From contig CAMBMH010000003.1 of NCBI GenBank assembly GCA_945868575.1, positions 331 to 64,330 of the forward strand: a DNA stretch of 64,000 bases, in the 5' to 3' direction. This document shows, piece by piece, positions 6,883 through 34,573 of the stretch; within the stretch, counting starts at the first letter, position 1, and the number at the start of each line of letters is the position of its first letter. The notes under the pieces are model-generated. The model had not been told where the DNA came from and made no database searches. It saw nothing but the letters and a program-made list of their open reading frames with translations. Made by a program: the position numbers and the translations under genes. The DNA is from Singulisphaera sp. GP187 (GTDB lineage: Bacteria; Planctomycetota; Planctomycetia; Gemmatales; Gemmataceae).

Positions 6883-6931
6883 GGATCAATTTCCGGATTT
6901 GAAATTATGTTTCTTGAATAGTGGTTGGGGA

Positions 6932-17155: not shown

Positions 17156-20100
17156 TTAGGGGAGGTAAAGGAATTCATTGAGCTGAAGCAGCGCATGGAC
17201 CAAGTCGACCCTGGCGACCATTCCAGGGTCCCGGATACCTTCCTCGGACGCCAGGGCTTTCTCTTGTTTCGCGAGAAATTCGGTTGACGCGGCGCGTTCC
17301 GAAGCCAGCGGCTCCCGGCCGAGCAACCTCAAATAGGCGGCATCAACATACGATTTGGGATCCGGGGTTGATCCCCCAAGAACCTTGGCAAGATCGGTTG
17401 CGCATTCCCGGGCCAAACGACCATTGAGAAGATAAAGCGCTTGGGGAGCGACCGTTGTTGTGGGACGAGCTTCCGCAATCTGAAGGGTATCCGGAGCATC
17501 AAAGACCATCAGGTCCGCGGGTAGCGCGCTCCGCTTCAGGAAAAAATAAACCGAACGGCGCCGATGGTTTGGATCCATCGTTCCCGGTCCGAACGGTGTC
17601 GGGTCAAGCCTTCCAGAAACCGCAAGCATCGAATCGCGAACAATCTCGGCTTCAAGCCTTCGTGGGGTGAACCTCCAATAAAGGCGGTTCGTCGGATCGG
17701 CCTTGAGCCTTTCGGAATCCGTTGTCGAGGTTTGCTGATAGGTCGCGGAGGTCACAATCAGGGTGTGGATGTGCTGGAGGCTCCAACCCGAACGGACAAG
17801 CTCTCCGGCCAGCCATTCGAGCAATTCCGGATGGGTGGGGCGGTCCCCCTGTATACCAAAGTCGTTGATCGTGGCGGTAAGGCCCCGACCAAAATGGTGA
17901 TGCCAAAGTCGATTGACAATCACGCGGGCCAACAGTCCACCGGCACCATCTTTTTCATCCGTAATCCAGCGGGCAAGGTTGGCGCGAAGACCCGGTGTTC
18001 GGGCCCCCTCTGGCATCGGCTTGATCCAGGAGGAGGAATCTTTCCCGTCCTTGCTTAATACCTGAAGGAATCCCTGACTGGCGACTTCCCCTTTTTGGTT
18101 GGGATCTCCCCGCTTGAGGAAGTGGGTCTGTTCGAGATAGTCCCCACCCTGGGTATGCAGGCGGATCGCCGGCAGCCCCTCGGAACAGACAAGGGCCTTG
18201 ACCGTTTTCGCGGCGGGTTTGGCTTTGTCGAGATCGGCGATCTTTGCAACGATCATTTCCCGCTCGGGATTCTTTGCCAAAAGCCAAGCCAACAGCGCGG
18301 CCTTCGTGCTCGCATCGATCGGTTTTCCCTGAAGGAATTCCTTCGCTCCGGCTGGAAGTCCGGCATCCTTCAAGTCCAATGGCGAAACCTGATCGGACAC
18401 ACCCAATCGGAAGTTGCCGATCGTGTGGCTGGTGTTGGTGCGAAATTCGAGGAGAATCTCAAGAATGGTCCCGCCCGCATATTCCGGAGCGTTTTCCACT
18501 TCGAACGCCCCAACATGGTCTTTGCCAAATTCAGGGTCGACGGCCCAACCCGTTTTGGCATCCGCGTCAATCGCTGCCGACAGTGGAAGCCCGTTTTGCT
18601 GGAAGGTCGCACGCGGCTTGGCCAGTTTGAGCACCACCGGACGATACCGGACATTGGGCAAAGGCTTGGCCGGTTTCGCCGTCACCTGAATATTCGACAA
18701 CGCGAAATTCCCATTGCCCGCCCTGCCGGGCCCGCCATTGACAAGGCTTTTGTCGGCGAAAACCTCAACACGGAACTGTCTCACTTTTTCGATGGGGGTG
18801 ATCGCCTCGATTGCATAGGCGTCTTCTCCCGGATTGGCTCCGGTCGATTGGATTTTTCCATCGGCTTTGATCAACAAGGTCGCGCCATTTTGCGAAGTTG
18901 CCTTGGTGGGGATCAGATTGGACCACCCGGTCTTTGCCTGGGCGGTGTTGGCTTGGGAGTTTTTCCACTTCTCCAGGATCCCCGAACCGCGCTCCCCATC
19001 AAACCGCGCGAGAACATCCGAGGCTTCCTTTCTCGATTTCTCCCAGGCGGCGATGCGCTGCGGAAGGTCGGGATCGGGAAGGGGAAGATCCTGATCGCTT
19101 CGAACCGTCTTGGTAAAAGTAGAAATAAGACGATAATAGTCCGTCATCGGAATCGGATCGTATTTGCTGTCATGGCAACGACAGCAGTTGATGCTCAGGC
19201 CAAGCATCCCGCCGCCTATGGTACGCACAATATCATCCAGCTCGTCGTATCGTTCTTTTTCGACCTGGCTTTTGGTGATCTGCGTGGCATGGACCCCCGC
19301 GCCCAAAAAACCGGTGGCCAAAAATGCGTCGGTGTTGCCCGGGGACAATTCATCCCCGGCGATCTGCCATGCGACAAACTTGTTATAAGGGAGATCGCTT
19401 TGGATCGCTTTGGTCACCCAATCCCTATACGGCCAAGCATGGTGGCGGTCATAGTCCTGTTCGTAGCCATGACTTTCCGCAAAGCGGGCAATATCCAGCC
19501 AATGTCTTCCCCAACGCTCGCCGTGGGCAACCGACTTGAGAAGGCCTCTAACATAATTTTGGAGATAATGGGGGCTGGAATCGCGCCTGATCTGCTGAAG
19601 CGTTTCGGGGGTGGGGGGAATCCCCGTCAGGTCCAGTGTTATCCTTCGGACAAGCACCTCAAGCGATGCCCGGGGATTGGGGCGGATCTTTGCCGCCTGG
19701 AGTCTTTGCAGGATGAAGGCGTCGATCGGATTTTGAATCCATTCGTCCCTGATTGCGGGAACCGGGGTTTCGCGAGGTGCCCCAAATGACCAGAACTCCC
19801 GATCCTTGGGCGTAACGACCAGATTCTTCGGTTTGGGTGCTTTGTTGGAAAGGGGCCTGGAATAGGCGGCCCCCAAATCAATCCAACGAGTCAAAAGCTC
19901 AATCATTTCGGCGGGGAGTTTTTTCTCCTTGCCGGGCATGTAAGGCTCTTCCGTATGTTGCACCAATCGAAGGAGGCGACTTTCCTTAATGGAAAAAGGG
20001 ACCACCGCAATGCCTTGATCACCGCCCGCCAAAAGTGTATCCCGCGTGGAGAGATCAAAACCGGAACGGGTTTTCTCACCGCCGTGGCACTGGAAACATT

Positions 20101-20239
20101 GCTCCTTGAGGATCGTCGCCACTTTGCTTTCGAAAAGCTGTGACGATTCCGTCAATCGCCTGGCATGGTCAGGCGGCAAAGGTGGCGAAACTGGGCCCTT
20201 AGCGGGCCAACCCAAGGTAAACAGGAGAATCCAATTCAT
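17156..20239 (-). CDS. PSCyt1/DUF1549(PSCyt2)/DUF1553(PSD1) protein
   Basis: Start MNWILLFTLGW at 20239. Heme-binding-like CFQCHG. NPIDAFILQRL (DUF1549) and VIVNRLWHHHFGRGL (DUF1553) motifs. Confidence 0.9.
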   Translation of the reverse strand: MNWILLFTLGWPAKGPVSPPLPPDHARRLTESSQLFESKVATILKEQCFQCHGGEKTRSGFDLSTRDTLLAGGDQGIAVVPFSIKESRLLRLVQHTEEPYMPGKEKKLPAEMIELLTRWIDLGAAYSRPLSNKAPKPKNLVVTPKDREFWSFGAPRETPVPAIRDEWIQNPIDAFILQRLQAAKIRPNPRASLEVLVRRITLDLTGIPPTPETLQQIRRDSSPHYLQNYVRGLLKSVAHGERWGRHWLDIARFAESHGYEQDYDRHHAWPYRDWVTKAIQSDLPYNKFVAWQIAGDELSPGNTDAFLATGFLGAGVHATQITKSQVEKERYDELDDIVRTIGGGMLGLSINCCRCHDSKYDPIPMTDYYRLISTFTKTVRSDQDLPLPDPDLPQRIAAWEKSRKEASDVLARFDGERGSGILEKWKNSQANTAQAKTGWSNLIPTKATSQNGATLLIKADGKIQSTGANPGEDAYAIEAITPIEKVRQFRVEVFADKSLVNGGPGRAGNGNFALSNIQVTAKPAKPLPNVRYRPVVLKLAKPRATFQQNGLPLSAAIDADAKTGWAVDPEFGKDHVGAFEVENAPEYAGGTILEILLEFRTNTSHTIGNFRLGVSDQVSPLDLKDAGLPAGAKEFLQGKPIDASTKAALLAWLLAKNPEREMIVAKIADLDKAKPAAKTVKALVCSEGLPAIRLHTQGGDYLEQTHFLKRGDPNQKGEVASQGFLQVLSKDGKDSSSWIKPMPEGARTPGLRANLARWITDEKDGAGGLLARVIVNRLWHHHFGRGLTATINDFGIQGDRPTHPELLEWLAGELVRSGWSLQHIHTLIVTSATYQQTSTTDSERLKADPTNRLYWRFTPRRLEAEIVRDSMLAVSGRLDPTPFGPGTMDPNHRRRSVYFFLKRSALPADLMVFDAPDTLQIAEARPTTTVAPQALYLLNGRLARECATDLAKVLGGSTPDPKSYVDAAYLRLLGREPLASERAASTEFLAKQEKALASEEGIRDPGMVARVDLVHALLQLNEFLYLP

Positions 20240-20369
20240 GGAAAGGCGTCCCGGGAGGTACGGGGCTACACGGCAGGTATAATTATTGTAGTACCCATAA
20301 GTCGCAAGTTGAAACACCTGTTCCCCCAAAAGGAACACCAAAGTTTGTATAAAGAGGCGGCCCTTGGGA

Positions 20370-22151
20370 TTATTCCGTACCTTTGGTTGATAAAAACCTC
20401 AATTCCAAAGATTTGACATCGGCCACCCCTGTGCCTGGGATTTCCAAAGCCCGTAGTTGGAGCAGCCCCCTGCACTTCTCGAGCGAGAGCCGCCCAAGGG
20501 GCACTGCAACAAAATCCTTGACATACGACTCCCCGGCGCGTCGAGGGGACCGGTCGTTTTCCATACCCCGAAGGGGTGGATCATGAGGCCGGTTGAGGAC
20601 CGTCTCGCACTTTTGGTCCCCAAGAGACAACTCTACCCGGGCCCCGGCATCTTCTTTTTTCTGGGTCATGAACAGGGTCGCTTCATATTGTCCCGCGTTT
20701 GCGATTTCGACATCCCAAGTGATCGCGTCCGTCTTGCGAGACCAATTGGCAAAAAACGAATCATTGGGCGCCGGAGCGCTTCGAACCACACCACCTTTGG
20801 GTCTGCCATCACGAGCGGGCAGGGTGGTGTTGGGCATTTCCCGATAACCCACGGGGAAAGGGCGGTCGTCTTTTGTCATGGGAATTCCCACCTGTTTTTT
20901 CCACGAATCCAGCGCCTCAATCAGTTCCTGGTGAGTGGCCGAGTTTTGAAGAGTAATATCCCGTTTTTGGCCCGGATCGAGAGTGATGTCGTAAAGATTT
21001 TGGGTTGGATCAAGGCGATAGGTGTCGGTTCGGACGCTGGTCTTTCCCGCCCAATGGGTGAAGAGGATCCTTTGGGGCCAGGCGGGATTGTTGCCTGAAA
21101 GCAATGGGGAAATCGAAACGCCATCCATGGGTTTTTGCGGATTGTGGGGGATGTCGCACAATCGGGCCAGGGTGGGGAGGATGTCAATGGCGCCCACGAC
21201 TTGGGGGATTCGTTTGCCAGGCGGGATTTTTGCGGGAAACCGTACAAAGCAGGGGGAACGGATTCCCCCCTCGTCCAGAGAGCCTTTGCGCCCTTTCCAT
21301 GGTCCGTTGAATCGGTCGCCATTGGGCCCGTTGTCGCTAAGGTAAACGACAATCGTATTATTTTCTATCTTAAGTGTATTTAATACATCTAAAATCCGGC
21401 CAACATTGTCATCAATGTTTTCAACCATGGCAAGGGCTGCCCGGGTGAATCGTGGATCTTCCAGTTTGCTCCCCTTTTGAATCAGTTCCTTTTTTTCAAA
21501 ACGGTTCCAATAAGCGTCGGGAACCTGCATTGGCGAATGGGGAGTATTGAAAGAGACCATGCAAAAGAAAGGCGATTTCGATTTGTGCTTTTCTGTGATA
21601 AAACCGATCGCGTGAGTAGTCAGATCATCGGTCATATACCCATTTCCCCGAACGGTTTTTCCGTTGTGATCCATAGGGGCATCAAAATAAGTCCCCCAGT
21701 GACCGGAGGTATAGCCGTAAAACTCTTCAAAACCCCGGGCGAGTGGGTGATAAGGCCACTGTGTACCGTTATGCCATTTTCCAAAAAGTCCCGTCCGGTA
21801 ACCCGCCGCCCGGAAAATGTCGGCCATGGTCCTTTCGTCGAGATTTAGCCTCTCCCCGCCAAGCGAAACATCACGCACCCCACAGCGGGCGTGATACCGT
21901 CCTGTCAATAGTTCGGCCCGGGTTGGCGAGCAGACCGGACAGACAAAAAAGTTTTCAAGAGCCGCGCCTTCTTTTGCCAGGGAGTCTATCCGGGGAGTTT
22001 TGAGGTTGGTGTTACCATGAATGCCTAAATCGCCCCAGCCCTGATCATCGGCCAAAAAGAGGACTATGTTGGGTGGTGTTGCAAGGCATTTTCCGTGTGA
22101 AAAAACCACCAATTGCACCAGGAAAAGTAGTCCCAAAAAAAGGCGTTTCAT
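20370..22151 (-). CDS. Arylsulfatase (Cys-type) with C-terminal extension
   Basis: Signal peptide, NIVLFLADDQGWGDLG, active-site CSPTRAELLTGRY, GKWH. Confidence 0.9.
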   Translation of the reverse strand: MKRLFLGLLFLVQLVVFSHGKCLATPPNIVLFLADDQGWGDLGIHGNTNLKTPRIDSLAKEGAALENFFVCPVCSPTRAELLTGRYHARCGVRDVSLGGERLNLDERTMADIFRAAGYRTGLFGKWHNGTQWPYHPLARGFEEFYGYTSGHWGTYFDAPMDHNGKTVRGNGYMTDDLTTHAIGFITEKHKSKSPFFCMVSFNTPHSPMQVPDAYWNRFEKKELIQKGSKLEDPRFTRAALAMVENIDDNVGRILDVLNTLKIENNTIVVYLSDNGPNGDRFNGPWKGRKGSLDEGGIRSPCFVRFPAKIPPGKRIPQVVGAIDILPTLARLCDIPHNPQKPMDGVSISPLLSGNNPAWPQRILFTHWAGKTSVRTDTYRLDPTQNLYDITLDPGQKRDITLQNSATHQELIEALDSWKKQVGIPMTKDDRPFPVGYREMPNTTLPARDGRPKGGVVRSAPAPNDSFFANWSRKTDAITWDVEIANAGQYEATLFMTQKKEDAGARVELSLGDQKCETVLNRPHDPPLRGMENDRSPRRAGESYVKDFVAVPLGRLSLEKCRGLLQLRALEIPGTGVADVKSLELRFLSTKGTE

Positions 22152-22302
22152 CTCATCGGCCTTTCCCGATTTGATTCATCTTTCAATAGGTCCCAAGGAG
22201 GGACGGCCAAAGGTCTAAATGATTCTTTTTTGTCGCCAGCAGGTGCAGAATGTGCAGCAGTCCCCGTTTAATTCCGCCAAAAGCAGGAAACATTCCAACC
22301 CG

Positions 22303-23763
22303 CTAATTGTCGCCTGGCGAAACTATCCCCGCAGGACGGTTTCCTTTAGCTTTTGTTTTGGTGAGGCTATCCCCCAGATCCTGGCGACACTTATCCGCGA
22401 AAGAAAGGAGTTTTGCCACAATCTCCGGTTTTACTCCGGCTATGTTTTTGTCCTCAGCGGGGTTCAATTCCAAATCAAAAAGTTCAGGCCGCACGATCCT
22501 TTTTTGTTCATATTTCGAGGGAATTCCACCCGTGCCCCCAGGGTTGCCTGAAAGGGTCTGATAGTTATGTGGAAGCTGGAGTTTATAGCGCCCGTCGGCT
22601 GTGGAAACTGCCTGGAGCTGATTATCCAGATAATAAAAGGCGTATCCCTCATGTGCGTTTGTTGCGCCAGGTTTCCTCTGAATCCACTCCCAAACATCAA
22701 CACCGTCCAAGGGTGGGCCTTTTCGTTTGATCTGCAGTTGTGAGGCAATCGTAGGCAAAAGGTCGATGGTCATGAAATTGGCGTCCGATCGGGTTCCCGC
22801 TTCGAATTTTCCAGGCCAGGACATGATGCATGGCACCCGCACTCCCCCTTCGAAACAGGTTCCCTTTCCCTCGCGAAGAACACCGGCACTTCCCGCGTGT
22901 TCGCCATAACTGAGCCAAGGGCCATTGTCGCTAGTAAAAATAATCCAGGTGTTTTCCAGTACGTTGTTCTTTTCCAGAGTGGAGACAATCTGGCCAACAC
23001 TATCATCAATCTCCTCAATCACATCGCCAAGAACTCCGGCTTTGGATTTTCCCGCGAATTTTGGTCCTGCAAAAAGAGGCACATGGGGCATCGAATGGGC
23101 AAGATAGAGAAAAAATGGTCTGCCCGTTTTGGCATAATTGTCCACAAAACGGACTGATTCGGACGCATATTGGCTGGTCAGGGTCGCCTGATCTTCTGGT
23201 GTAACATCATCGTCAATTATTTTGTCATTTCGGATGAGTGGAAGCTTGGGGTAGCTTCCTTTTTTCGCCTCGGGGTGGCTGGGCCACATATCATTGGAGT
23301 AGGGAAGTCCAAAATAAGAGTCAAAACCGTGACGAGTGGGCAAAAACGGCGAACGATGCCCCAAATGCCATTTGCCGACTGCAGCCGTCTGGTAACCTAC
23401 CCCTTTTAGCAACTCCGCCAGGGTAACCTCGTTGGCATGGATCCCATGCCGGGCTTGTGGCCCGAGGGCACCCTGAATTCCTATCCGGTTGGGATAGCAC
23501 CCGGTAAGAATCGCCGCACGAGACGCGGAACATACAGGCTGGGCCACATGAAAGTTCGTAAAAGTCCGCCCATTTTTTGCCAGCTTGTCCAAATGGGGTG
23601 TGCGAATATTTTTGGCTCCAAAGGGACCAATATCCGCGTATCCAAGATCGTCACAAAAGATCAGGACAATGTTCGGGCGATTTTTCTGGTCATCTGCCTT
23701 CTGCTGATGGGGAATGGATGGTGACAGGCAAATTGCAAGCATACCCAAAAGGGGTGACAACAT
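22303..23763 (-). CDS. Arylsulfatase (Cys-type)
   Basis: NIVLIFCDDLGYADIG, active-site CSASRAAILTGCY (C-x-A-x-R variant), GKWHLG. Confidence 0.9.
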   Translation of the reverse strand: MLSPLLGMLAICLSPSIPHQQKADDQKNRPNIVLIFCDDLGYADIGPFGAKNIRTPHLDKLAKNGRTFTNFHVAQPVCSASRAAILTGCYPNRIGIQGALGPQARHGIHANEVTLAELLKGVGYQTAAVGKWHLGHRSPFLPTRHGFDSYFGLPYSNDMWPSHPEAKKGSYPKLPLIRNDKIIDDDVTPEDQATLTSQYASESVRFVDNYAKTGRPFFLYLAHSMPHVPLFAGPKFAGKSKAGVLGDVIEEIDDSVGQIVSTLEKNNVLENTWIIFTSDNGPWLSYGEHAGSAGVLREGKGTCFEGGVRVPCIMSWPGKFEAGTRSDANFMTIDLLPTIASQLQIKRKGPPLDGVDVWEWIQRKPGATNAHEGYAFYYLDNQLQAVSTADGRYKLQLPHNYQTLSGNPGGTGGIPSKYEQKRIVRPELFDLELNPAEDKNIAGVKPEIVAKLLSFADKCRQDLGDSLTKTKAKGNRPAGIVSPGDN

Positions 23764-23996
23764 GGCTGGTTTTCCAAAAGGTATTGATGTTCGGCTATCC
23801 TAGGAAAAAGGTGACCACGAAAAACCACAACCGATTTGCATTTCTTGGTGCCGATTCCAAGCAAATCTGGCTTCAACCTTTTGCCCTCAAAATCACGCTA
23901 AACGGTGTCAATCTGGTAACGAAACCATCATAGAATCCAATAATGCCCCAGCTTGCATGGGGAATTGTTCCCAAACTGTTCCCGGAAAGGGGATCC

Positions 23997-25118
23997 ATGG
24001 GCCCCACCCTCAAATCCATAACCCTTTGTGGTTTCCGTTCGATAGGCCAATTGCACCAATTTCCGCTTGATAATATCAACATCCTGATCGGCGCAAATGG
24101 CGCCGGCAAAAGCAACTTCATCGAATTCTTCCGGATGATGCGCGCGATCGTTGATAGGGCGCTGCCAAGATATGTCCGAAACAGGGGAGGCGGTTCTGGA
24201 TTTTTCCACCTTGGCCCAAAGCATACCCCCAGAATTCACGCAGATCTCGACTTTGGCGACCTTGGTTATCGGTTTGAAATCGGCTTGACCGCTTCGGATG
24301 GGCTGCAATTAATTGACGAGAGGGTGCGTGATTCCCCCTTGGCACCGGGAACCAGCCACTGGGTGGAATTGCCAACGGGTCTATTGGATTCAATCCTCCC
24401 AAAACATCGTTTCCCAACCGAGGTTTCAGGCAAGACTACCGAAATTGCCACCAGGGTTTTTGAAGCCCTATCCCAATGGATCGTTTACCATTTTCATGAC
24501 ACCAGCCGTTTGGCCCCGATGCGCATGCCCCATGAAGCACGCGATAGCGAATGGTTGCGCCATGACGCATCGAACATTGCCTCGGTCTTGTGCAAATTAC
24601 GCGAAAAAGATCCGGACAGCTACGGGTTAATGCGGGACACGGTCCGCCTGGGGGCGCCTTTTTTTGACGACTTTGTCTTGCGCCCCGAGGATTGTGGAGG
24701 AGTGGAACGGATCCGCCTTGAATGGAAACAAACGGGAAGTGATTAACCGTTTCAGCCGATGGATCTTTCTGATGGAACCATCCGTTTTGTCTGTTTGACG
24801 GTTGCTCTCCTCCAGCCCCACCCGCCGGGAACCCTGGTAATTGACGAACCTGAACTTGGTCTGCATCCATGTGGCTTGGCTCTGGTGGCGAACCTTGTCC
24901 GTTCGGTTTCCAAAAAAGCACAAATCCTCATTTCCACCCAATCCCCCGTCTTTTTGGACCATTTTGATCCGGAGCATGTTGTCGTGGCAACAAGGCGCAA
25001 GGGAGAGTCCTGTTTTGAGCGACTTTCAGGCGATGCCTGGAAGGAATGGCTTGACGATTACACCCTTGGCGAATTGTGGCAAAAGAACATCTGTGGTGGA
25101 GCCCCCAACCATGAATAG
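23997..25118 (+). pseudogene. ABC/AAA_21-type ATPase interrupted by an in-frame TAA at 24744-24746
   Basis: ORFs 23943..24746 and 24759..25118 are in the same frame. The N-half has Walker A GANGAGKS. The C-half has LSDGTIRF (signature-like), LVIDEPELGLHP (Walker B/D-loop) and ISTQSP. Likely start is MGPTLKSITLCGFRSIG at 23997 with GGGGA upstream. Read through, the gene is 373 aa. Confidence 0.8.
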
Positions 25119-25875
25119 GGACTTAAACTATGGAAATCAGCAAATCAAACGGGTTTTCGTATTGGTCGAAGGGCGCACGGAGGAACTCTTTGTGCGTGAA
25201 GTACTGGGACCATGGCTTGATGCCCGGGGTGTCCTGATCACTGCCCACCAGATGGGCAAACCGGGACACCGTGGAGGTATTGGGGAGTACCCAAGGGCAC
25301 AAAGGGAGATTGTCAATTGGCTTTGTCGTGACCGGTCTTCCATCCTGACAACACTCTTTGATTTTTACGGCATGCCCGATTCCTGGCCCGGACGGATTCA
25401 CGCCGCAGGACTCCCCTATCCCGACAAAGCCCTTTGGGTGGAAAAAGCGATTCACGAGGACATTGTGCTTGGAATGGGGCACCGATTTCCCCCGGAGCGC
25501 TTTATACCCCATGTCCAGATCCACGAATTCGAAGCGCTGGTTTTTACCGATCCCCATATGCTTTGCGAAGTTTTACGGGCTCCGGAAATGCTCGAAATTG
25601 TGGATGATATTCGCAACGATTACGCAAACCCCGAGATGATCAACGACAGTCCCGAAACAGCCCCATCAAAGCGCCTCTTGCGGATCTTTGATCATTATCG
25701 AAAGACGATTCACGGAGTGATCACCACCAAGCGCGTTGGCCTTCCGGCGTTGCGCCGGGCCTGCCCCCATTTTGATCTTTGGGTAAGCAAACTGGAAAAC
25801 CTTGCATCAAAAAACTTTGGACAAGGGTCCTTTGCGAAGGGAAATTTTCCGGACAGCGCCCATTATCGCCAATGA
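25111..25875 (+). CDS. DUF4276 family protein (Toprim-like?)
   Basis: ATG 25111 overlaps the ATPase stop (ATGAATAG). Motifs VFVLVEGRTEELFV, TLFDFYGMP, HEFEALVF and PSKRL match my recollection of DUF4276. The ORF-track N-terminal extension (24841..25110) is not protein-like. Confidence 0.8.
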   Translation: MNRDLNYGNQQIKRVFVLVEGRTEELFVREVLGPWLDARGVLITAHQMGKPGHRGGIGEYPRAQREIVNWLCRDRSSILTTLFDFYGMPDSWPGRIHAAGLPYPDKALWVEKAIHEDIVLGMGHRFPPERFIPHVQIHEFEALVFTDPHMLCEVLRAPEMLEIVDDIRNDYANPEMINDSPETAPSKRLLRIFDHYRKTIHGVITTKRVGLPALRRACPHFDLWVSKLENLASKNFGQGSFAKGNFPDSAHYRQ

Positions 25876-26519
25876 ATGTCTGATAAAAGGGCTTCACGAC
25901 CGGGAGGAACATTCGTTCTCTCGCGAATGGAGCAATAGCCGAATCCGCCCAGGCGCCCCACAGCATCAAGTTCTGCGGGGTCAATATGAAGACGGTCGTT
26001 TGCCAACGAATCGGCCACATGGATCATTACGATCTCACCGAGAATCAGGTTTCCCGCCCCCGGTACGCCTGGTTTGAACCGTGTGATGGAGTGGGTTTCG
26101 CATTCCAATGTGATCCTTGCTTCTGCCACTCTGGGCGCATCGACCATCTCCGCCCGAATCGGGGTCAGGCCGGAAAGATCGAATTCACTCTCCTCGGGTG
26201 GAAGCGCCTCTGCACAGGATACAACCTGGCTGAGGATTTCGCGATGAGCAATGCTAATTGTAAACCCCCCGCGGCCCCCTTCCGAAACGGCAAAGAGATT
26301 ACGCAAGGAGTCCTTTGGTTCCCCTTTCGCATTGTTGGCAATCCCCAACATGACCAGCATCGGATCCGCGCTCACGGCGTTGAAAAAGCTGAAAGGCGCG
26401 ACATTGGCGACATTTCCCGGTCCGTATGTGCCGACAACCGCGATGGGTCGTGGCACAACCGAGCCAATAAGCAGGTTGTAGCGGACCTTGGGGTCAAGCT
26501 TGGCAGGATCGATCTTCAT
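25863..26519 (-). CDS. Flavin reductase-like (FMN-binding split-barrel) protein
   Basis: VVPRPIAVVGTYGPGNVANVAPFSFFNAVSADP and KDSLRNL are typical of the flavin reductase domain. The 3' end overlaps the DUF4276 gene convergently by 13 nt. Confidence 0.85.
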   Translation of the reverse strand: MKIDPAKLDPKVRYNLLIGSVVPRPIAVVGTYGPGNVANVAPFSFFNAVSADPMLVMLGIANNAKGEPKDSLRNLFAVSEGGRGGFTISIAHREILSQVVSCAEALPPEESEFDLSGLTPIRAEMVDAPRVAEARITLECETHSITRFKPGVPGAGNLILGEIVMIHVADSLANDRLHIDPAELDAVGRLGGFGYCSIRERTNVPPGREALLSDIHWR

Positions 26520-26578
26520 GGAATATCTCCCGGTGAAAAAAGGGTCCGGCCAGTTGATGGCCCAATGACATATGGCGG

Positions 26579-27952
26579 CTATTTCGCCGATTTGAACAAA
26601 ACAAGACTTTTTCGACCGCTTTTTTCGTATTTTTCACGCCTTGCTGGGGGAAGATCCTCCGGCGAACCCGGGCTGAAGCCGCCCTTTTGCTGGAAAAAGT
26701 TGAAGGTCTGCGTCGAAAGGCAAAATATCCTGGCAAAGCCCGTGCTTCGTGCCTGGTTCTCGGCAAACTGCATAAGCCTCTTCCCGATTCCCTGGTTTTC
26801 ATAGCGGGGATCCACGCACAAACATGCAAGCTCCACCATGCTCTTTTCGGGGAAAGGATGCACGGCGACACAACCAACAGGCTCGCGATCAACCTCGAAC
26901 ACAAAGAAATCTTCCGCCTGGCGTTCGATTTCGGTCCGGGTACGCTTGAGGAGTTCATCGTTGGCGACCGATTTCGCAATTAAGCGGTGAATGGCAGGCG
27001 CGTCCTTTTTGCGGGCACGACGAATCGCCTGGTATTCGTTGGCATGGATTAGCGTCCCAATGCCTTCATTGGAAAACACCTCCGCAAGCAACCCTTCCTC
27101 AACCCGGCCATCGATGATATGAACCCTAGGAATTCCACCTTCGACAGCCTTGAGCGCCTGATCGAGTTTGGAAAGCACATCAGGAGGCAATTCGGTTCGA
27201 CCCCGTTTGGCAAGCGCGGATGCTTCCTCCTGGGAAAGTTGGCGCAAAAGGACATGTTTGTCCGGAGCAGCACCGCGAAGCTCGGAATGACCCAGTCCCA
27301 AAACTTCCGCCGCTTTGGAACGGGAAATCTCGATCCCCTGGCGGGTTGTCAGGTAAACGATTTTTGTCGCCTGGAGAGCCCGGGCCAGTTCGACCGCAAC
27401 AATATCGCTATTAAGCCGGTACGATTTACCCTCGCCGTCATACCCAATGGGGGGGACCACTGGCACCATGTCAATGCTCAAAAGGCTGCGAATCATCTCC
27501 GAATCGATCCGCTCGACGCGGCCGGTGTGGAGGTGATCAATCCCTGAAAGGATTCCGGCAGGATGGGCGACCACCGCATTGGTCACCGCGCCCCGAAGGT
27601 CCGCCTGGCTTAAGCCTTCCAGAAGTTCATGGCTGACACGCCCGGAAGCAAGCAATGCAAGCTGTAAAGTTTGCTCGTCGGTCACCCCTGATCCATCGAG
27701 ATTGCTCGGCACCTTGCCCATCTGCTGTCCAAGACGCTCCAATTGGTGTGCGGCTCCATGAACCAAAACCACTCCAACCCGCAGCGACCGCAAAAGCGCG
27801 AGATCCAGTAGTACATTCCGGAAATTTTCGTCCTCCACCACCGCACCATCGACCGCGATGACAAAGACTCGGTCTCGGAATCGGGGCACATAGCGAAGAA
27901 TTTCACGCAGGTCGATCAATCGGCGTCCGGATTGGTGGGGGCCTTCACTCAT
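26579..27952 (-). CDS. argA: Amino-acid N-acetyltransferase (N-acetylglutamate synthase; AAK + GNAT)
   Basis: Start MSEGPHQ at 27952. The amino-acid kinase domain has FVIAVDGAVVEDENF...VLVHGAAHQL. The C-terminal GNAT has YENQGIGKRLMQFAE. Confidence 0.85.
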   Translation of the reverse strand: MSEGPHQSGRRLIDLREILRYVPRFRDRVFVIAVDGAVVEDENFRNVLLDLALLRSLRVGVVLVHGAAHQLERLGQQMGKVPSNLDGSGVTDEQTLQLALLASGRVSHELLEGLSQADLRGAVTNAVVAHPAGILSGIDHLHTGRVERIDSEMIRSLLSIDMVPVVPPIGYDGEGKSYRLNSDIVAVELARALQATKIVYLTTRQGIEISRSKAAEVLGLGHSELRGAAPDKHVLLRQLSQEEASALAKRGRTELPPDVLSKLDQALKAVEGGIPRVHIIDGRVEEGLLAEVFSNEGIGTLIHANEYQAIRRARKKDAPAIHRLIAKSVANDELLKRTRTEIERQAEDFFVFEVDREPVGCVAVHPFPEKSMVELACLCVDPRYENQGIGKRLMQFAENQARSTGFARIFCLSTQTFNFFQQKGGFSPGSPEDLPPARREKYEKSGRKSLVLFKSAK

Positions 27953-28116
27953 TGAGAGGGTTTCCGAAGGGATTTGGCCTGCCAACACCCGCGGCTTGCC
28001 CACTCCCTATGAAATCAAAGCTAGTGTGCCCGGCCCGTGGGGCAAGTTGAACGCCAAAGACGCTACCCTAAGATAACATAAAGATCCGATTTCATCCCAA
28101 CTCCCGGGGGTTACGA

Positions 28117-29190
28117 ATGAGCAGCCAAGGCATCGAGAAGGTGGTCATCGTCGGTTCCGGCCCAGCGGGTTGGGCGGCTGCAATTTATGCGGCTCGCGCC
28201 AGCCTTGTCCCCCTTGTTTTCGAGGGCGCCATCACCGAAGCAAACCGCCTCAAGGGAACTCTCCCCCTCGGTCAACTCAACCTGACCACCGAAGTCGAAA
28301 ACTTTCCTGGTTTTCCTGCCGGCCCCCTGCGCGAATATCTTGCAGGGGCGCTTCCCGAAGATCGCCGACCTTTTTGGGTTCTCGACAATGACAAACAGCC
28401 AGCCCACGGTGTCACGGGCCCGGAACTTATGGAGTTGATGCGTCAACAAGCGGTCAACTGTGGTGCAAAAATTGTCACCGATGACATCATCAATGTTGAT
28501 TTCTCCAAGCGTCCATTCACCCTGACCTCCATCGAAAACGGAACCGTTCAGGCCCACGCGGTAATCATCGCAACCGGCGCCCGCGCCAACTACATCGGCC
28601 TCCCTTCCGAAGAGACCTATAAGAACCGGGGCGTTTCCGCCTGTGCGGTGTGTGATGGAGCCCTTCCCCGATTCCGCAACAAACCCCTGGTGGTCGTGGG
28701 CGGTGGTGACAGCGCGGTAGAAGAAGCAAGCTACCTGTCCAAATTTGCAAGCGTGGTGTACCTTGTTCATCGTCGTGACAAGTTGCGTGCTAGCAAAGTG
28801 ATGGAGAAACGCGCCCTTGCCAATCCCAAGATCACTCCAGTATGGAATGCCCAAGTAGTGGAGTGTCTTGGTAACGACACCGAGGGGCTCACCGGCGTTA
28901 AGATCAAATCAACGGTGGATGGATCGTTTAGGGAAATCACCGCGACGGGTCTCTTCGTTGCAATTGGCCACACCCCCAACACCGACTTCCTTGGTGGACA
29001 ACTTGAAACCAATGAAAAGGGTTATGTCAAATGGCCTGTCGCCCACCGGACCAATAGCTCGGTTGAAGGCATCTTCGCCGCAGGCGATGTGGGTGATGAC
29101 TATTACAGGCAAGCGATCACTGCCGCAGCTTCGGGCTGTCAATCGGCCCTGGATGCCGAGCGTTGGCTGTCCGCACAGGGAATCGACTAG
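28117..29190 (+). CDS. trxB: Thioredoxin-disulfide reductase
   Basis: [15 protein letters not shown], redox centre [27 protein letters not shown]. Carries an extra ~30 aa after ENFPGFP compared with E. coli TrxB as I remember it. Confidence 0.93.
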
Positions 29191-29226
29191 GAGCGTGACT
29201 ACCCCCTTTGGGTTTTTGCGATAGTT

Positions 29227-29270
29227 GGGACACCGGAGCGATTTGCGCCTTGCCGGTGTCCCCAGCTTTT
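29227..29270 (+). terminator. Rho-independent terminator candidate downstream of trxB
   Basis: Perfect 10-bp stem gggacaccgg / ccggtgtccc with a 16-nt loop, followed by cagcTTTT. Begins 37 nt after the trxB stop. Confidence 0.6.
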
Positions 29271-29359
29271 GAGAACACGGGTCCTTTCCGTTAAAACCAT
29301 TCCGCCTTCAGGAATTTTTTCTCATAATTTACCCCACCACAACGATTTTCGAGGTCTGA

Positions 29360-30949
29360 ATGTCCCAGGCAGCACCCGTTCCCGCATCGAACAAATACGA
29401 TGAGGTTCCCTACACCAGCCGGGCATTCATGACCACGCATCCCGAACATCTCGCGACAATGGCGATGATCTTTGGGATGAACCCGACCCCGCTCTCCCGG
29501 GCCCGGGTTCTGGAAATAGGCAGCGCCGCGGGTGGAAACATTTTGCCGGTGGCTTGCGCCAATCCGGGTGGGACTTTTATCGGCATCGACTACTCCAAGG
29601 TGCAGGCCGACCAGGGCGCCCAAATGGTCAGGGACCTTGGAATTTCCAACGCGCAAATCCTGCATCTGGACATTCTTGATTTCGATTGCGCGGCCCATGG
29701 GAAATTCGACTACATCATTTGTCACGGGGTGTTCTCCTGGGTCCCCGAGCCTGTCCGTGAAAAGATCCTGAAGATTTGCAGGGAAACGCTTTCGCCGCAG
29801 GGGATCGCGTATATCAGCTACAATACATATCCCGGATGGAAAATGCGCGAAATCATCCGTGATGTGATGAATTATCACGCCGGGAACCGCTCCACCGCAA
29901 GGGAACAGGTCCAACAGGGAAGGGCCATACTTGATTTCATCCAGAAAAACGCGGAGCCGGACACAGCCTTCAGCAAACTTCTCACCTCCGAAGTGGAAAT
30001 CCTGAAAGCGGCGCCGGACGACTATCTCCTTCACGAACACCTTGAGGAAACCAATGTCCCCTTCTACTTCAAGGACTTCATGGCGGTCGCCCACAGACAT
30101 GGCTTGAACTATGTAGGCGAGTCCCACATCGACGAGATGATGCCACATTTCATGGGCCCCGAAGTCATGCGCGCCCTGGAGACTATTTCAGGCGGAAACA
30201 TCCTCCTTATGGAGCAATACATCGACTTCTTCCGCAACAGGCGTTTCCGTCGCACCATCCTCACCCTTGCCGAAAACACTCCCGCCCTGACCAGACACAT
30301 TGAAGCCAATGTGCTCAAGCGTTTTCATCTTGCGAATTTCTTTCGGATAGAACCTCTTGGCGTGCCGCTTAACGAGGCCCGTGAGCAAACCTTTACAGAT
30401 CCCGAGGGGAGAAACCTCAAGAGCAATGTGCCTGTGGTCCGCGCCGCGCTTTTGACTTTGGCCGAGGAATGGCCGGCGACATTGCGCTTTGATATTTGGC
30501 TCGAAAAAACCCGGGCAAAACTGGGTGGCCCACAAACAAACGACATCACCCTGCTTGATGAACTTCTGGTCAAAGGATTTTGCGGCGGCATGATTCGCCT
30601 TCGCTCAAGCCCGGTCAAAAAGGCAACTCTTCCCGACGACAAGCCAATCGCTTTTGCACCTGCGCGGATCCAGTCACTTGCCATGCAAAACGAGGCCACG
30701 ACCTGCTGGCACAACACCATTCGCATCAACGATCTTCAAAGGGTCATGATTGGACTTCTGGATGGCAAAACCACCATGGAAGAGTTGATGGAGGCCATAA
30801 TTCGAAAATGTCAATCCGGTGAATGGACATTGGGAAACCAAGGGCAACCGGTGACCGATGCCAACCAGATCCGGGCGCTTTTGGCACCGGCCCTTCCCAT
30901 GGCACTGCTCGAACTCCAAAAGTCCGGCATTCTCATCGCGAAAGACTGA
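29360..30949 (+). CDS. Class I SAM-dependent methyltransferase with C-terminal methyltransferase-regulatory-like domain
   Basis: Motif I VLEIGSAAGGNILPVA and FDYIICHGVFSWV, followed by a ~300-aa C-terminal domain. This architecture matches my recollection of Methyltransf + MethyTransf_Reg proteins. Confidence 0.8.
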   Translation: MSQAAPVPASNKYDEVPYTSRAFMTTHPEHLATMAMIFGMNPTPLSRARVLEIGSAAGGNILPVACANPGGTFIGIDYSKVQADQGAQMVRDLGISNAQILHLDILDFDCAAHGKFDYIICHGVFSWVPEPVREKILKICRETLSPQGIAYISYNTYPGWKMREIIRDVMNYHAGNRSTAREQVQQGRAILDFIQKNAEPDTAFSKLLTSEVEILKAAPDDYLLHEHLEETNVPFYFKDFMAVAHRHGLNYVGESHIDEMMPHFMGPEVMRALETISGGNILLMEQYIDFFRNRRFRRTILTLAENTPALTRHIEANVLKRFHLANFFRIEPLGVPLNEAREQTFTDPEGRNLKSNVPVVRAALLTLAEEWPATLRFDIWLEKTRAKLGGPQTNDITLLDELLVKGFCGGMIRLRSSPVKKATLPDDKPIAFAPARIQSLAMQNEATTCWHNTIRINDLQRVMIGLLDGKTTMEELMEAIIRKCQSGEWTLGNQGQPVTDANQIRALLAPALPMALLELQKSGILIAKD

Positions 30950-30955
30950 TCCTCC

Positions 30956-32104
30956 GTGGCCAACGACACTCATCCCGCTGATTGCCTTACCGTTCCAGTG
31001 AATTTGGGAGAACGATCCTACAAAATTGTTCTCCCTGGAGCGGGTCACCCATGGCCCGGGGATTCCGCAACGGATTTCCCGACCCAGTCCCCGGGCGGAT
31101 TGGCCCGATCCAGAAACAAAAGCGGACTTGCTTTCGTGGTGGCCGACCGGGGCGCGGCCCCGCACCTGGCCAGCCTTAAAGCCTCCCTGGAAAAAGCAGG
31201 CTACCGGGTCGAATCGACCATTCTCGATCCGGGCGAGGGTCAAAAGTCACTGACGGTGGCCGCCTCGCTTTATGAAAAACTTCTCGACCTCAAAGCCGAT
31301 CGCAAAACTCTCCTGGCGGCCCTTGGGGGCGGCGTGACGGGTGACCTGACTGGATATGTCGCGGCGACCTATCTCCGTGGACTTCCTTTTCTCATGGTGC
31401 CCACGACCCTTTTGAGCATGGTCGACAGCTCCGTCGGCGGGAAAACCGGGGTCAACCTGTCCCGAGGCAAGAACCTGGTCGGGTGCTTTCACCAGCCGGT
31501 CGGCGTCTGGATCGACATCGGCACCCTCAAGACCCTCCCCGATCGAGAATTTCGCAGCGGCTTGGCTGAGGTCGTCAAATATGGCATGATTATGGATGCT
31601 CCCTTTCTCGAAATCCTCGAACAAAATGTAGCTCCACTTATGGCCCGGGATCCGGCGATTCTTGGCCCGGTGGTGGCCCGTTGTTGTGAACTCAAGGCGG
31701 ATGTCGTCTCCAAGGATGAACGCGAGGAGACCGGTCTGCGCGCCATACTCAACTACGGCCACACCTTTGCCCATGCGTACGAAACCGTCGCGGGCTACGG
31801 CGCCTGGTTTCATGGCGAGGCGGTTTCCGCCGGGATGCAAGCGGCGGCGAAATTGGCCGCGGCCAGGGGCCTCATCCCTTCGGAATTGGTGGACAGGCAA
31901 CGGCGTCTTTTGGAGGCTTTTGGCCTTCCCGTTGAACGCGATCCCACCTGGCCTGTCGATACCATGATCGAAATCATGCGTTCCGACAAAAAAGCCGAAG
32001 CGGGACAACTTCGGTTCATCCTTCCGGTGCGGGCGGGTGAAGTCCGCCTCTTCGCGGATGTCACCGTGGCGGAAGTCGTCGCCGCGCTTGGCCCTTCCAA
32101 GTAG
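30956..32104 (+). CDS. aroB: 3-dehydroquinate synthase
   Basis: GGGVTGDLTGYVAATYLRGLPFLMVPTTLLSMVDSSVGGKTGVNL, KNLVGCFHQP, LNYGHTFAHAYE, HGEAVSAGM. GTG start. Confidence 0.93.
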   Translation: MANDTHPADCLTVPVNLGERSYKIVLPGAGHPWPGDSATDFPTQSPGGLARSRNKSGLAFVVADRGAAPHLASLKASLEKAGYRVESTILDPGEGQKSLTVAASLYEKLLDLKADRKTLLAALGGGVTGDLTGYVAATYLRGLPFLMVPTTLLSMVDSSVGGKTGVNLSRGKNLVGCFHQPVGVWIDIGTLKTLPDREFRSGLAEVVKYGMIMDAPFLEILEQNVAPLMARDPAILGPVVARCCELKADVVSKDEREETGLRAILNYGHTFAHAYETVAGYGAWFHGEAVSAGMQAAAKLAAARGLIPSELVDRQRRLLEAFGLPVERDPTWPVDTMIEIMRSDKKAEAGQLRFILPVRAGEVRLFADVTVAEVVAALGPSK

Positions 32105-32258
32105 GCCATTAATTCGAGGCATTGCCCCGTTTATGGCTCAACCTCCCGAGAAAAACTCTTTAGGATACACCCAAGGCATTTTTTGTATGATTTCCCCTGA
32201 ATGGTGTTTGCGTTCCCATCAGGCCTGATCGATCCGGACCACCCCAAGGAATCGAGCG

Positions 32259-33566: not shown

Positions 33567-33586
33567 TCCTTTTGGATGCCTCCACC

Positions 33587-34483
33587 ATGAACCGAAGAGA
33601 TGCCATGACCCTCACCGCCGCCGCGGGACTCACCCCGGGACTCCTTTCCGCCAACACCCCCGATCCGGGCAGTTTACGCCAATCCATTGTCGCCTGGTGC
33701 TGGCGAAGCTTTGGAACCAAATGGTCTCTGGAACAGGTTTGCCAGGCCGCCAGGGACTCCGGTTGCCAATCTGTCGAACTGGTCACACCGGACGAATGGC
33801 CGACCCTGAAGAAATATGGTCTGGCTTGCGCCATTGCGACCAACAACACAGGCTGGGCCAAAGGTTTCAACAACCCCGCGATCATCGACGAAGTCCGCTC
33901 CCTCACCACAAAGGCCATCGAGGACGCCGCGAAAGAGGGGATTGGATCGGTGATCGGTTTTGTCGGTTCCAAATACATCAAGCCAGGCGACCCCAAAAGT
34001 GGTGTCATCGCCAGGGACGAAGGGTACAAACACTGCGTCAAAACGCTGAAAGAAATGGCGAAGGTCGCCGAAAAGCACAAAGTCACGCTTTGCATCGAAC
34101 ATTTGAACAGCCGGGATGATAGCCACCCCATGAAAGGGCATCCCGAATACATGGGGGACAACCTCGACGAGGTCGTCAACCTCATCAAGGAGGTCGGTTC
34201 GCCTCGCATCAAGATCCTTTTTGACATCTATCATGTGCAAATCATGCACGGCGATCTCATTCGGCGTATCAAGCAGCTAGGCGACCTGATCGGCCATGTC
34301 CACACAGCCGGCAATCCCGGAAGGTGCGAACTCGACCCCAACCAGGAAATCCAGTACAAGCCCGTGATCCAGGCGCTCTGGAATTCAGGCTATCGGGGCT
34401 TCATCGGCCACGAGTTTTTGCCCACAAGGGACGCCATGGGCGGACTGATCCAGGCGGTCACCACCTGCGCCATTTCCGGTTAA
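33587..34483 (+). CDS. Tat-signal xylose-isomerase-like TIM-barrel protein (hydroxypyruvate-isomerase-like)
   Basis: Twin-arginine leader MNRRDAMTLTAAAGL; CIEHLNSRDDSHPMKGHP, FDIYHVQIMHGD, HTAGNPGRCE, GHEF. Confidence 0.85.
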   Translation: MNRRDAMTLTAAAGLTPGLLSANTPDPGSLRQSIVAWCWRSFGTKWSLEQVCQAARDSGCQSVELVTPDEWPTLKKYGLACAIATNNTGWAKGFNNPAIIDEVRSLTTKAIEDAAKEGIGSVIGFVGSKYIKPGDPKSGVIARDEGYKHCVKTLKEMAKVAEKHKVTLCIEHLNSRDDSHPMKGHPEYMGDNLDEVVNLIKEVGSPRIKILFDIYHVQIMHGDLIRRIKQLGDLIGHVHTAGNPGRCELDPNQEIQYKPVIQALWNSGYRGFIGHEFLPTRDAMGGLIQAVTTCAISG

Positions 34484-34510
34484 CCTGTCCCGGTTGGATT
34501 TTGGAAAGAC

Positions 34511-34555: not shown

Positions 34556-34573
34556 CAACAAATCCCTGTTTCA

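Follow-up and report, generated by a model that had tools for sequence, protein, structure and literature searches.

The two-gene locus and its chromosomal setting

Two overlapping genes occupy positions 23997 to 25875 of the window, i.e., the whole stretch of 64,000 nucleotides from Singulisphaera sp. GP187 that was analysed. The pair, its motifs and its immediate flanks are laid out as follows:

23764–23996, no strand: divergent intergenic region between the minus-strand sulfatase gene and the ATPase gene, the presumed promoter (ORF coordinates)
23997–25118, plus: gene 1, ABC-type (AAA_21) ATPase with one in-frame stop codon inside (Pfam, PADLOC HEC-01A)
24090–24113, plus: Walker A motif (P-loop) GANGAGKS, invariant in the homologue alignment
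24744–24746, plus: in-frame TAA at codon 250 of gene 1, replacing TAC (Tyr); TAC in 7/7 related contigs
24765–24788, plus: ABC signature region LSDGTIRF, 3' of the premature stop; LSDGT conserved in the homologue alignment
24834–24869, plus: Walker B and D-loop, LVIDEPELGLHP, conserved in the homologue alignment
24933–24947, plus: STQSP at the H-loop position (homologue alignment)
25111–25118, plus: 8-nt overlap ATGAATAG of the gene 2 start (ATG at 25111) with the gene 1 stop (TAG at 25116–25118)
25111–25875, plus: gene 2, intact, 254-residue DUF4276 protein, a stand-alone Toprim-like putative nuclease (Pfam, PADLOC HEC-01B, AlphaFold2)
25159–25191, plus: VLVEGRTEELF, end of β1 and start of α1, position of the Toprim catalytic Glu (alignment, AlphaFold2)
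25354–25371, plus: LFDFYG, end of β3, where the Toprim DxD motif has its first Asp (alignment, AlphaFold2)
25522–25545, plus: HEFEALVF, acidic pair E139 and E141 just after β4 (alignment, AlphaFold2)
25642–25677, plus: NDSPETAPSKRL, best-conserved motif in the helical C-terminal part of gene 2 (alignment)
25863–25875, no strand: 13-nt convergent overlap of the ends of gene 2 and the flavin reductase gene (ORF coordinates)
25863–26519, minus: Flavin_Reduct ORF, right neighbour of gene 2

Gene 1 matches AAA_21 in Pfam (E 3.8e-30), as well as AAA_15 and SMC_N, and harbours the motif set of ABC ATPases, comprising Walker A, ABC signature, Walker B and D-loop. Within the STQSP motif, S313, T314, Q315 and S316 are invariant among the aligned homologues and P317 is nearly so. 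The sole match in a PDB sequence search with the ATPase was the OLD entry 6p74. In intact relatives, gene callers place the start at an upstream in-frame ATG (23943), yielding 391 residues, and the start of most homologues corresponds to position 23997. An intact counterpart of the protein (P0084) is 97% identical.

The product of gene 2 covers the full DUF4276 profile (positions 1–192; E 2.9e-45), and Pfam bears out the family assignment of the initial annotation; residues 233–254 are a species-specific tail of low confidence. The AlphaFold2 model (pLDDT 90.3, pTM 0.86) shows a three-layer α/β fold with a four-stranded parallel sheet, as expected of a Toprim domain, and its elements follow the order β-α-β-α-β-α-β (β13–19, α22–37, β41–47, α60–73, β78–84, α105–122, β131–136). 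The acidic residues E20/E24, D84 and E139/E141 lie at the C-terminal ends of β1, β3 and β4, respectively. E20, the conserved glutamate that follows β1 in Toprim domains, comes directly after strand 13–19. Across 73 sequences it is nearly invariant, and among the 24 closest it does not vary at all; G21, T23 and E24 are nearly invariant too. At the end of β3 lies the nearly invariant D84, whose +2 position is a tyrosine in the clade (FDFYG or FDYYG). E141 is invariant and E139 nearly so; this conserved pair, which follows β4, might contribute the remaining metal ligands. In NDSPETAPSKRL, where A184, P185, S186 and R188 are invariant and K187 is nearly so, a basic active-site or substrate-binding element may be present, judging from OLD.

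When the model was compared with the PDB by Foldseek, the sole significant matches were 6njv, 6njx and 6njw, the C-terminal (Toprim) region of a Xanthomonas OLD protein, at E-values of 4e-5 to 9e-5, a probability of 1.0 and modest TM-scores of 0.38–0.45. Searching PDB sequences with the DUF4276 profile returned nothing meaningful (E 0.77, a release factor), and the Toprim relationship is therefore detected by fold comparison only. The Toprim-like character proposed earlier is nevertheless corroborated by the OLD match and by the literature. The BFVD library of viral folds yielded no match at E ≤ 0.001, its best being a weak one (E 0.03) to an RloB-like protein. The modest TM-scores and the tyrosine in place of the second Asp of the DxD motif speak against a Toprim effector. 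Apparent internal stops in some DUF4276 relatives turned out to be tblastn alignments that extend beyond the genuine stop codon into the long tail of the window; there is no real disruption.

The 8-nt overlap implies translational coupling of the two genes. This overlap, the convergent one with the flavin reductase gene, the two minus-strand sulfatase genes to the left and the quoted motifs of both proteins had all been described in the initial annotation and were all found. The presumed promoter region contains no σ70-type consensus, and scans for σ70 promoters and intrinsic terminators were uninformative. Pfam and PADLOC scans of the 64-kb window revealed no neighbouring defence genes, and neither an integrase nor a transposase is among the matches listed (the best 25 of 44 Pfam families, and PADLOC). 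Around the pair, no direct or inverted flanking repeats exceed chance-sized matches, the GC content is unremarkable and does not shift. The whole neighbourhood including the pair is collinear in a relative with approximately 78% nucleotide identity (L008), and this synteny argues against a recent insertion. In the comparison with the ~78% relative, the dN/dS ratio is 0.068 (ATPase) and 0.080 (DUF4276 gene); strong purifying selection acts on both genes in this lineage. The earlier view of the pair as a small inserted accessory module finds no support here, given the collinearity, the selection and the missing GC anomaly and flanking repeats. A seemingly different set of left-hand genes in one near-identical contig (L006) was ruled out, since its alignment with the window is gapless from one end to the other and only the gene calls differ.

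Assignment to HEC-01 and comparison with other ATPase-Toprim systems

Both proteins have dedicated models in PADLOC-DB. With the premature stop written as X, gene 1 matches the HEC-01A model PDLC04175 (E 2.3e-123) over residues 4–370 of 373 and profile positions 5–362 of 363, and gene 2 matches the HEC-01B model PDLC04188 (E 4.5e-71) over residues 8–232 and profile positions 8–227 of 230. As in HEC-01, the genes are direct neighbours in the same orientation, here with the 8-nt overlap. By these profile matches, the pair is the already catalogued PADLOC candidate anti-phage system HEC-01.

HEC-01, or Hma-embedded candidate 01 of PADLOC-DB v2, combines an ABC ATPase with a TOPRIM protein that has a conserved metal site, and the family came to light inside Hma defence systems (Payne et al., bioRxiv 10.1101/2024.01.29.577857). 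In one published systematic test, HEC-01 gave no protection against the BASEL and classic coliphages, and according to its authors most HEC candidates are not enriched near defence genes (bioRxiv 10.1101/2024.01.29.577857). In a single preprint with three phages (T4, T5 and T7), a HEC-01 representative is reported to protect E. coli B from at least one of them. The pair was initially regarded as uncharacterised and functionally untested, a description superseded by the publication of HEC-01 in 2024 and by two tests with conflicting outcomes. In the proposed check of the locus with PADLOC, the pair matches HEC-01 and the window holds no other defence genes. The locus shares with HEC-01 its two-gene order, in which the ABC ATPase comes first and the separate Toprim-like protein second, yet it lies outside any Hma system or defence island and its ATPase gene carries a premature stop.

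Related loci were collected with an alignment of the 24 closest DUF4276 sequences, giving 80 genome loci. In every one of them (80/80) the ATPase gene is located directly upstream of the DUF4276 gene on the same strand, and the two genes abut or overlap; the conserved adjacency, which the initial annotation had suggested surveying, is strict. The family is patchily distributed across phyla. Distant relatives reside on 13 plasmids, and one of these is part of a WYL-SNF2-ATPase-DUF4276-methyltransferase (Hma-like) array; toxin-antitoxin genes also adjoin relatives on plasmids. No relative was found among 50,697 phage records.

Membership in the broader class of defence-type systems that join an ATPase of the ABC type to a Toprim nuclease, as originally proposed, is supported. 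The best mechanistic model is PARIS, which likewise consists of two genes for an ABC ATPase (AAA_15/21) and a separate Toprim effector; its ATPase scaffold senses a trigger and frees the nuclease, and tRNA is cleaved. The PARIS effector AriB belongs to DUF4435, whereas gene 2 is a DUF4276 protein that at E-values up to 0.1 matches DUF4276 only in Pfam and HEC-01B models only in PADLOC, with no AriB match. The AriA match of gene 1 (E 1e-28) reflects a generic AAA_21 profile only and is far weaker than the match to HEC-01A.

The same domain pair occurs in MADS, where Mad3 is an AAA_21-type ATPase and Mad4 a DUF4276 protein. Earlier work already places DUF4276 among the Toprim families, both as Mad4 and as an effector domain in Menshen, and MADS3-4 and AbiL have been grouped with the ABC-ATPase and TOPRIM systems. 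However, gene 1 scores 106 bits against the NCBIfam model MAD3 (NF047739), for which the cut-off is 420, and its PADLOC mad3 match (E 1e-19) compares with 2e-123 for HEC-01A; gene 2 has no mad4 match, and the other mad genes are absent from the window. A possible MADS remnant, a methyltransferase gene (29360–30949) with a mad2 match (E 5e-20), was rejected: the match covers a generic SAM-binding domain only (residues 26–173), the protein has PKMT-type regulatory and WHD domains, and three unrelated genes separate it from the pair.

OLD and Gabija GajA likewise unite ABC ATPase and Toprim nuclease, but in one polypeptide rather than in two separate ORFs, and matches to the GajA and Old models are confined to the ATPase part. 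Gabija further employs a GajB/UvrD-like helicase partner, none of which lies near the pair. Finally, AbiL (AbiLi ATPase and AbiLii RloB) and the Menshen NsnB/NsnC-DUF4276 variants resemble the pair in coupling an ABC ATPase to a divergent Toprim protein. Gene 1 matches AbiLi (E 1e-19) and NsnB (E 5.5e-16) weakly in PADLOC, but gene 2 has no RloB/AbiLii match, and no NsnA or NsnC-type partner is among the matches listed for the window by PADLOC and Pfam.

A premature stop codon in the ATPase gene

Gene 1 was initially described as encoding an AAA_21-type ATPase, and the TAA at codon 250 was not mentioned. The ATPase assignment holds on the strength of Pfam and the motifs; the gene is not a single reading frame, as the TAA splits it into a first ORF that ends at 24746 and a second that begins at 24759. 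The stop arises from a single C-to-A change at 24746 (..KQTGSD*PFQPMDLSDGT..) and precedes the ABC signature motif by seven codons. Seven near-identical metagenome contigs (L001–L007) all encode Tyr (TAC) at this codon, and the residue is Tyr or Phe in all aligned homologues. Compared with these contigs, the pair shows five other differences, four synonymous and one in the tail, and therefore the lesion in gene 1 appears to be recent. A functional HEC-01 system would need both genes intact, yet here the ATPase gene is interrupted. Since the stop is located 5' of the signature, Walker B and D-loop, the ATPase copy is most likely non-functional. The copy of the pair in Singulisphaera sp. GP187 is thus most likely inactive, with the nuclease gene alone intact.

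An error of sequencing or assembly, or a minority variant, would leave a HEC-01-type pair that is intact and functional in the organism. This explanation is unlikely but deserves consideration, given that only one base is substituted, that TAC is present in each of the seven other assemblies from this or a sister population, that the rest of the pair differs only by synonymous or tail changes and that both genes are strongly constrained in the lineage. Against it, the window and L002 are 99.73% identical over 20.7 kb with zero indels, so the window is not visibly error-prone, and polished assemblies seldom contain substitution errors that produce a stop codon. In addition, the ATPase gene is sporadically disrupted elsewhere, by a frameshift in L057 and by a TAG stop at residue 83 in L070, from which it follows that real decay of this gene does happen.

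The interrupted gene could also work as two polypeptides, if translation stopped at the TAA and re-initiated at the ATG at 24759, and if an N-terminal half with Walker A and a C-terminal half with signature, Walker B and D-loop reassembled into an ABC head, in the manner of split SMC/Rad50-type heads. The in-frame ATG lies 12 nt past the stop, the break falls between the structural halves of the ABC fold, and re-initiation would keep the translational coupling to gene 2. We nevertheless regard such an arrangement as extremely improbable: no relative is so organised, a single intact ATPase ORF being present in 73 of the 80 related loci, all seven population contigs encode the tyrosine, no Shine-Dalgarno-like sequence precedes the ATG, and the family-conserved residues 250–254 (Y-PFQP) would be lost or split.

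Inheritance, putative function and significance

The pair sits among housekeeping genes, here between sulfatase and flavin reductase genes. In 25 of the 80 related loci it lies, on the same strand, between the genes for ETFβ, ETFα and acyl-CoA dehydrogenase (ACAD) and a gene for a HAD hydrolase. The planctomycete subfamily is stable in such surroundings, which is atypical of defence systems and, like the lack of defence genes in the 64-kb window, speaks against a defence role.

The Planctomycetota pair might be a vertically inherited cellular module for nucleic acid processing, such as repair or RNA/DNA quality control, that has only its ancestry in common with defence systems. This possibility draws on the collinearity with the ~78% relative, a dN/dS of about 0.07, the recurrent ETF-ACAD setting and the lack of a compositional anomaly, of flanking repeats and of mobile-element or defence genes among the matches listed for the window, as well as on the failure of HEC-01 to protect in its authors' screen and the lack of enrichment of most candidates near defence genes. 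We consider it quite improbable, however, because the family was discovered inside Hma defence systems, relatives on plasmids lie beside toxin-antitoxin genes and within an Hma-like array, one HEC-01 conferred phage protection, and DUF4276 serves as Mad4 of MADS and as the effector domain in Menshen. Moreover, the distribution across phyla is patchy, gene inactivation is tolerated here and in two other genomes, and within the ETF-ACAD clade the identity of the pair is weakly correlated with that of ACAD (r 0.23–0.36). Very doubtful, too, is a wider version of this idea, in which the pair would be a long-resident, vertically transmitted chromosomal module that either plays a cellular role (repair, quality control) or represents a "domesticated" defence system, rather than a mobile defence-island cassette.

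The explanation that we prefer, and consider probable, is that the locus is a HEC-01-type module of the defence type, in which an OLD/PARIS-like ABC ATPase is coupled to a DUF4276 Toprim protein, and which in this genome carries a recent nonsense mutation at Tyr250 and is most likely non-functional. By analogy with PARIS, AbiL, MADS Mad3/Mad4 and OLD/Gabija, the HEC-01A ATPase of an intact module would act as sensor and regulator that holds or licenses the Toprim nuclease. Infection would then trigger metal-dependent cleavage of nucleic acids (DNA or tRNA), and the cleavage would halt phage replication.

The architecture, the Toprim assignment and the candidate defence status have all been published previously and can be searched for with PADLOC. 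Intact planctomycete orthologues, e.g., the TAC allele of L002, provide further material for testing HEC-01, and the strongly constrained, housekeeping-embedded subfamily illustrates how a defence-type module would escape island-enrichment methods. The nonsense allele itself represents a natural knock-out of the ATPase with the nuclease gene intact, which suggests that the DUF4276 nuclease by itself is not constitutively toxic.

Assignment of the gene pair to HEC-01

Both plus-strand genes described in the initial annotation are present according to the ORF listing and direct reading, and every quoted motif was found where it had been placed.

23997-25118, plus strand: gene 1, ABC/AAA_21-type ATPase
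25111-25875, plus strand: gene 2, DUF4276 protein, 254 aa
25807-25875, plus strand: C-terminal tail of gene 2 (residues 233-254)
25863-26519, minus strand: Flavin_Reduct gene, convergent to gene 2

The 8-nt overlap of genes 1 and 2 (ATGAATAG at the junction) and the 13-nt convergent overlap of gene 2 with the flavin reductase gene are likewise as reported. Pfam assigns gene 1 to AAA_21 (E 3.8e-30) and gene 2, over the whole profile, to DUF4276 (E 2.9e-45), and therefore the family named for gene 2 in the initial annotation is correct. The STQSP motif (24933-24947), which we take to be the expected site of the ABC-ATPase H-loop histidine, has a glutamine that is invariant in 10/10 aligned ATPase sequences. 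Besides ATG 23997, gene 1 has an alternative in-frame ATG at 23943, where gene callers start the intact orthologue (391 aa; segment 23943-23996); the position of ATG 23997 is the start in the ten aligned ATPase homologues except P0084 and P0087.

The PADLOC check of the locus revealed full-length matches of both proteins to the candidate anti-phage system HEC-01, gene 1 to the ATPase HEC-01A (PADLOC-DB PDLC04175, E 2.3e-123) and gene 2 to HEC-01B (PDLC04188, E 4.5e-71). The matches of gene 1 to AriA (a generic AAA_21 profile), AbiLi, mad3, Old, NsnB and GajA all lag behind by tens of orders of magnitude, the NCBIfam MAD3 equivalog scores 106 bits, below its cut-off of 420, and gene 2 has no PADLOC-DB match outside the HEC-01B models. 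HEC-01, by definition an ABC ATPase with an associated TOPRIM protein, was discovered inside Hma systems; B. pseudomallei OLD aligns with it at the metal-binding site, and it gave no protection against an E. coli phage panel (Payne et al., bioRxiv 10.1101/2024.01.29.577857). According to a later preprint on cold-seep microbes, E. coli B with a HEC-01 representative is protected from one or more of the phages T4, T5 and T7 (10.1101/2024.09.26.614923). The Menshen study places DUF4276 and RloB in the Toprim superfamily and identifies the MADS component Mad4 as a DUF4276 homologue (PMC12065111), and the PARIS paper counts AbiL and MADS3-4 among the systems that combine an ABC ATPase with TOPRIM (PMC11464382). 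In light of the HEC-01A/B matches and the published Toprim status of DUF4276, the earlier inference of an ABC-ATPase/Toprim defence class was right, and the description of the pair as uncharacterised and untested has to be given up: it is the catalogued system HEC-01, for which phage tests have been published.

The AlphaFold2 model of gene 2, built from 73 aligned sequences out of 83 DUF4276 homologues gathered (mean pLDDT 90.3, pTM 0.86), has the order β(13-19)-α-β(41-47)-α-β(78-84)-α-β(131-136) ahead of a helical C-terminal part, with nearly invariant acidic residues at the strand ends (E20/E24 after β1, D84 after β3, E139/E141 after β4). Foldseek against the PDB returned three significant matches, 6njv, 6njx and 6njw (E 4e-5 to 9e-5, probability 1.0, TM 0.38-0.45), all to Xanthomonas campestris OLD in its C-terminal region, which comprises the Toprim and helical portions, as the suspected Toprim-like nature of gene 2 had predicted; a caveat is that this clade has Tyr in place of the second Asp of canonical DxD (FDFYG). 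All remaining PDB matches had E > 0.02, the top BFVD match, an RloB-like protein, was not significant (E 0.03), and a PDB sequence-profile search with the gene 2 family found nothing. Among PDB sequences, the sole match of the gene 1 ATPase is the OLD family endonuclease 6p74 (E 1.6e-4). The 22-residue tail of gene 2 is modelled with pLDDT below 70 and accounts for the 13-nt convergent overlap; in the closest relatives, P0002-P0004, the protein is 18-21 residues shorter at this end, and T234K within it is the sole non-synonymous gene 2 difference from the near-identical metagenome contig L002.

Conserved pairing and a premature stop in gene 1

A GTDB scan with one genome per species yielded 320 relatives, and the best 80 loci were kept, mostly from Planctomycetota, with some from Chloroflexota, Gemmatimonadota, Myxococcota, Hydrogenedentota and others. 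The proposed neighbourhood of the two families held decisively: among these best 80 of 320, an ATPase homologue lies immediately 5' of the DUF4276 gene, on the same strand and abutting or overlapping it, in 80/80 loci, and is a single intact ORF in 73.

The motifs of gene 1 are real and in place, but the initial annotation overlooked an in-frame TAA at 24744-24746 (KQTGSD-stop-PFQPMDLSDGT). This stop lies seven codons 5' of the ABC signature, so that Walker A falls before it and the signature, Walker B and D-loop after it; as predicted from the sequence, the window's ATPase ends after residue 249. A split ATPase, restored by re-initiation at ATG 24759, appears very improbable.

Seven metagenome contigs with the same locus (L001-L007; 95.8-99.7% identity across the pair) served for comparison. 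All seven read TAC (Tyr) at the stop position, including L002, which is 99.73% identical to the window over 20.7 kb with zero indels, and all aligned ATPase homologues have Tyr or Phe there, in a conserved GSD[YF]PFQ motif. Apart from the stop, the pair differs from L002 at five positions, four synonymous and one a Thr-to-Lys change in the disordered gene 2 tail. The tyrosine of the relatives and the mostly synonymous other differences thus point to one recent C-to-A substitution, or perhaps to a miscalled base; an artefactual stop in an intact system seems unlikely to us. Sporadic ATPase disruptions occur in two of the best 80 related loci, each beside an apparently intact DUF4276 gene:

L057, 1669-2761: ATPase frameshift
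L070, ~9124: TAG at ATPase residue 83

Both cases go back either to MAG errors or to a repeated course of decay that begins with the ATPase. In the window copy, coupling of translation into gene 2 is probably weakened too, and together with the ATPase truncation this renders the module most likely inactive. Since the intact nuclease gene survives without its ATPase, the nuclease does not seem to be constitutively toxic.

Chromosomal setting and plasmid relatives

The genes within ±10 kb, besides the pair and the flavin reductase gene, code for DUF1501, PSCyt/PSD and two sulfatases, an ArgA-like kinase/acetyltransferase, a thioredoxin-reductase-like oxidoreductase, a PKMT-like methyltransferase, DHQ synthase and others.

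9935-11986: ORF with helicase-domain PADLOC matches, taken to be the window's UvrB gene
17156-23763, minus strand: part of the typical planctomycete content
29360-30949, plus strand: methyltransferase, 529 aa (Methyltransf_25/31, MethyTransf_Reg, PKMT winged helix)
46837-53370, plus strand: very long ORF, 2177 aa

The typical planctomycete content comprises two PSCyt1/PSCyt2/PSD1, one DUF1501, four sulfatases and one (sulfatase-modifying) FGE-sulfatase gene. For 42 other ORFs across the 64-kb window, PADLOC produced only generic domain matches; the mad2 match of the methyltransferase (E 5e-20) is confined to the SAM-binding domain (residues 26-173), which rules this protein out as a MADS component.

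L008, a MAG with a Singulisphaera label, is collinear with the whole of 18137-35755, including the pair, at ~78% nucleotide identity, and the methyltransferase is conserved there as well. The GC content of the pair (0.52-0.54) is unremarkable against its flanks (0.49-0.57), no meaningful repeats flank it, and comparison with L008 gives a dN/dS of 0.068 (ATPase) and 0.080 (DUF4276). The pair has thus long resided in this chromosome under selective maintenance and is not a recent cassette insertion; the idea of an inserted module finds no support. The closest relative in the genome collection carries a Singulisphaera label (~78% nucleotide identity).

In a planctomycete clade, 25 of the best 80 loci (of 320) harbour the pair between ETFβ-ETFα-acyl-CoA dehydrogenase (ACAD) genes and a HAD hydrolase gene, all on the same strand, a conserved housekeeping setting that is unusual for a defence-type module.

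L034, L037, L042, L046, L050, L054, L056, L059-L062, L064, L069, L071, L073, L082 and others (25 in all): ETF-ACAD/HAD loci
L037, 4591-5640: example ETFβ
L034, 8096-8773: example HAD
L089 (Aeromonas media plasmid pMC64A, NZ_CP047963.1), 3117-9166: WYL-SNF2-ATPase-DUF4276-methyltransferase array

In the 19 of these 25 loci where both flanks are present, ACAD averages 78% identity, the ATPase 64% and DUF4276 60%, and pair identity correlates only weakly with ACAD identity (r 0.23-0.36). More distant relatives (33-38% identity) were found on 13 plasmids, among them the L089 plasmid and a mobilizable Acinetobacter plasmid of 11 kb that has the pair beside vapBC and tet(39); no relative of any kind occurred among 50,697 phage records. 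The L089 array, coding for a WYL protein, an SNF2 helicase, an AAA ATPase, DUF4276 and a DNA methyltransferase with IS elements on its flanks, is a clear plasmid-borne, Hma-embedded copy of the same pair type. Housekeeping synteny and strong constraint favour a cellular, non-defence role of the planctomycete subfamily, yet its links to Hma, MADS, Menshen and plasmids, together with the single positive phage assay, speak against it, and we regard such a role as improbable.

Of the mechanism, the analysis itself shows an ABC ATPase with catalytic motifs intact in relatives, a partner of predicted Toprim fold whose acidic residues are conserved, and a strict operonic coupling of the two genes. 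By analogy to PARIS, AbiL, MADS3-4 and OLD, the ATPase would be the infection sensor that governs a metal-dependent nuclease, and this nuclease would cut DNA or tRNA and thereby abort the infection.
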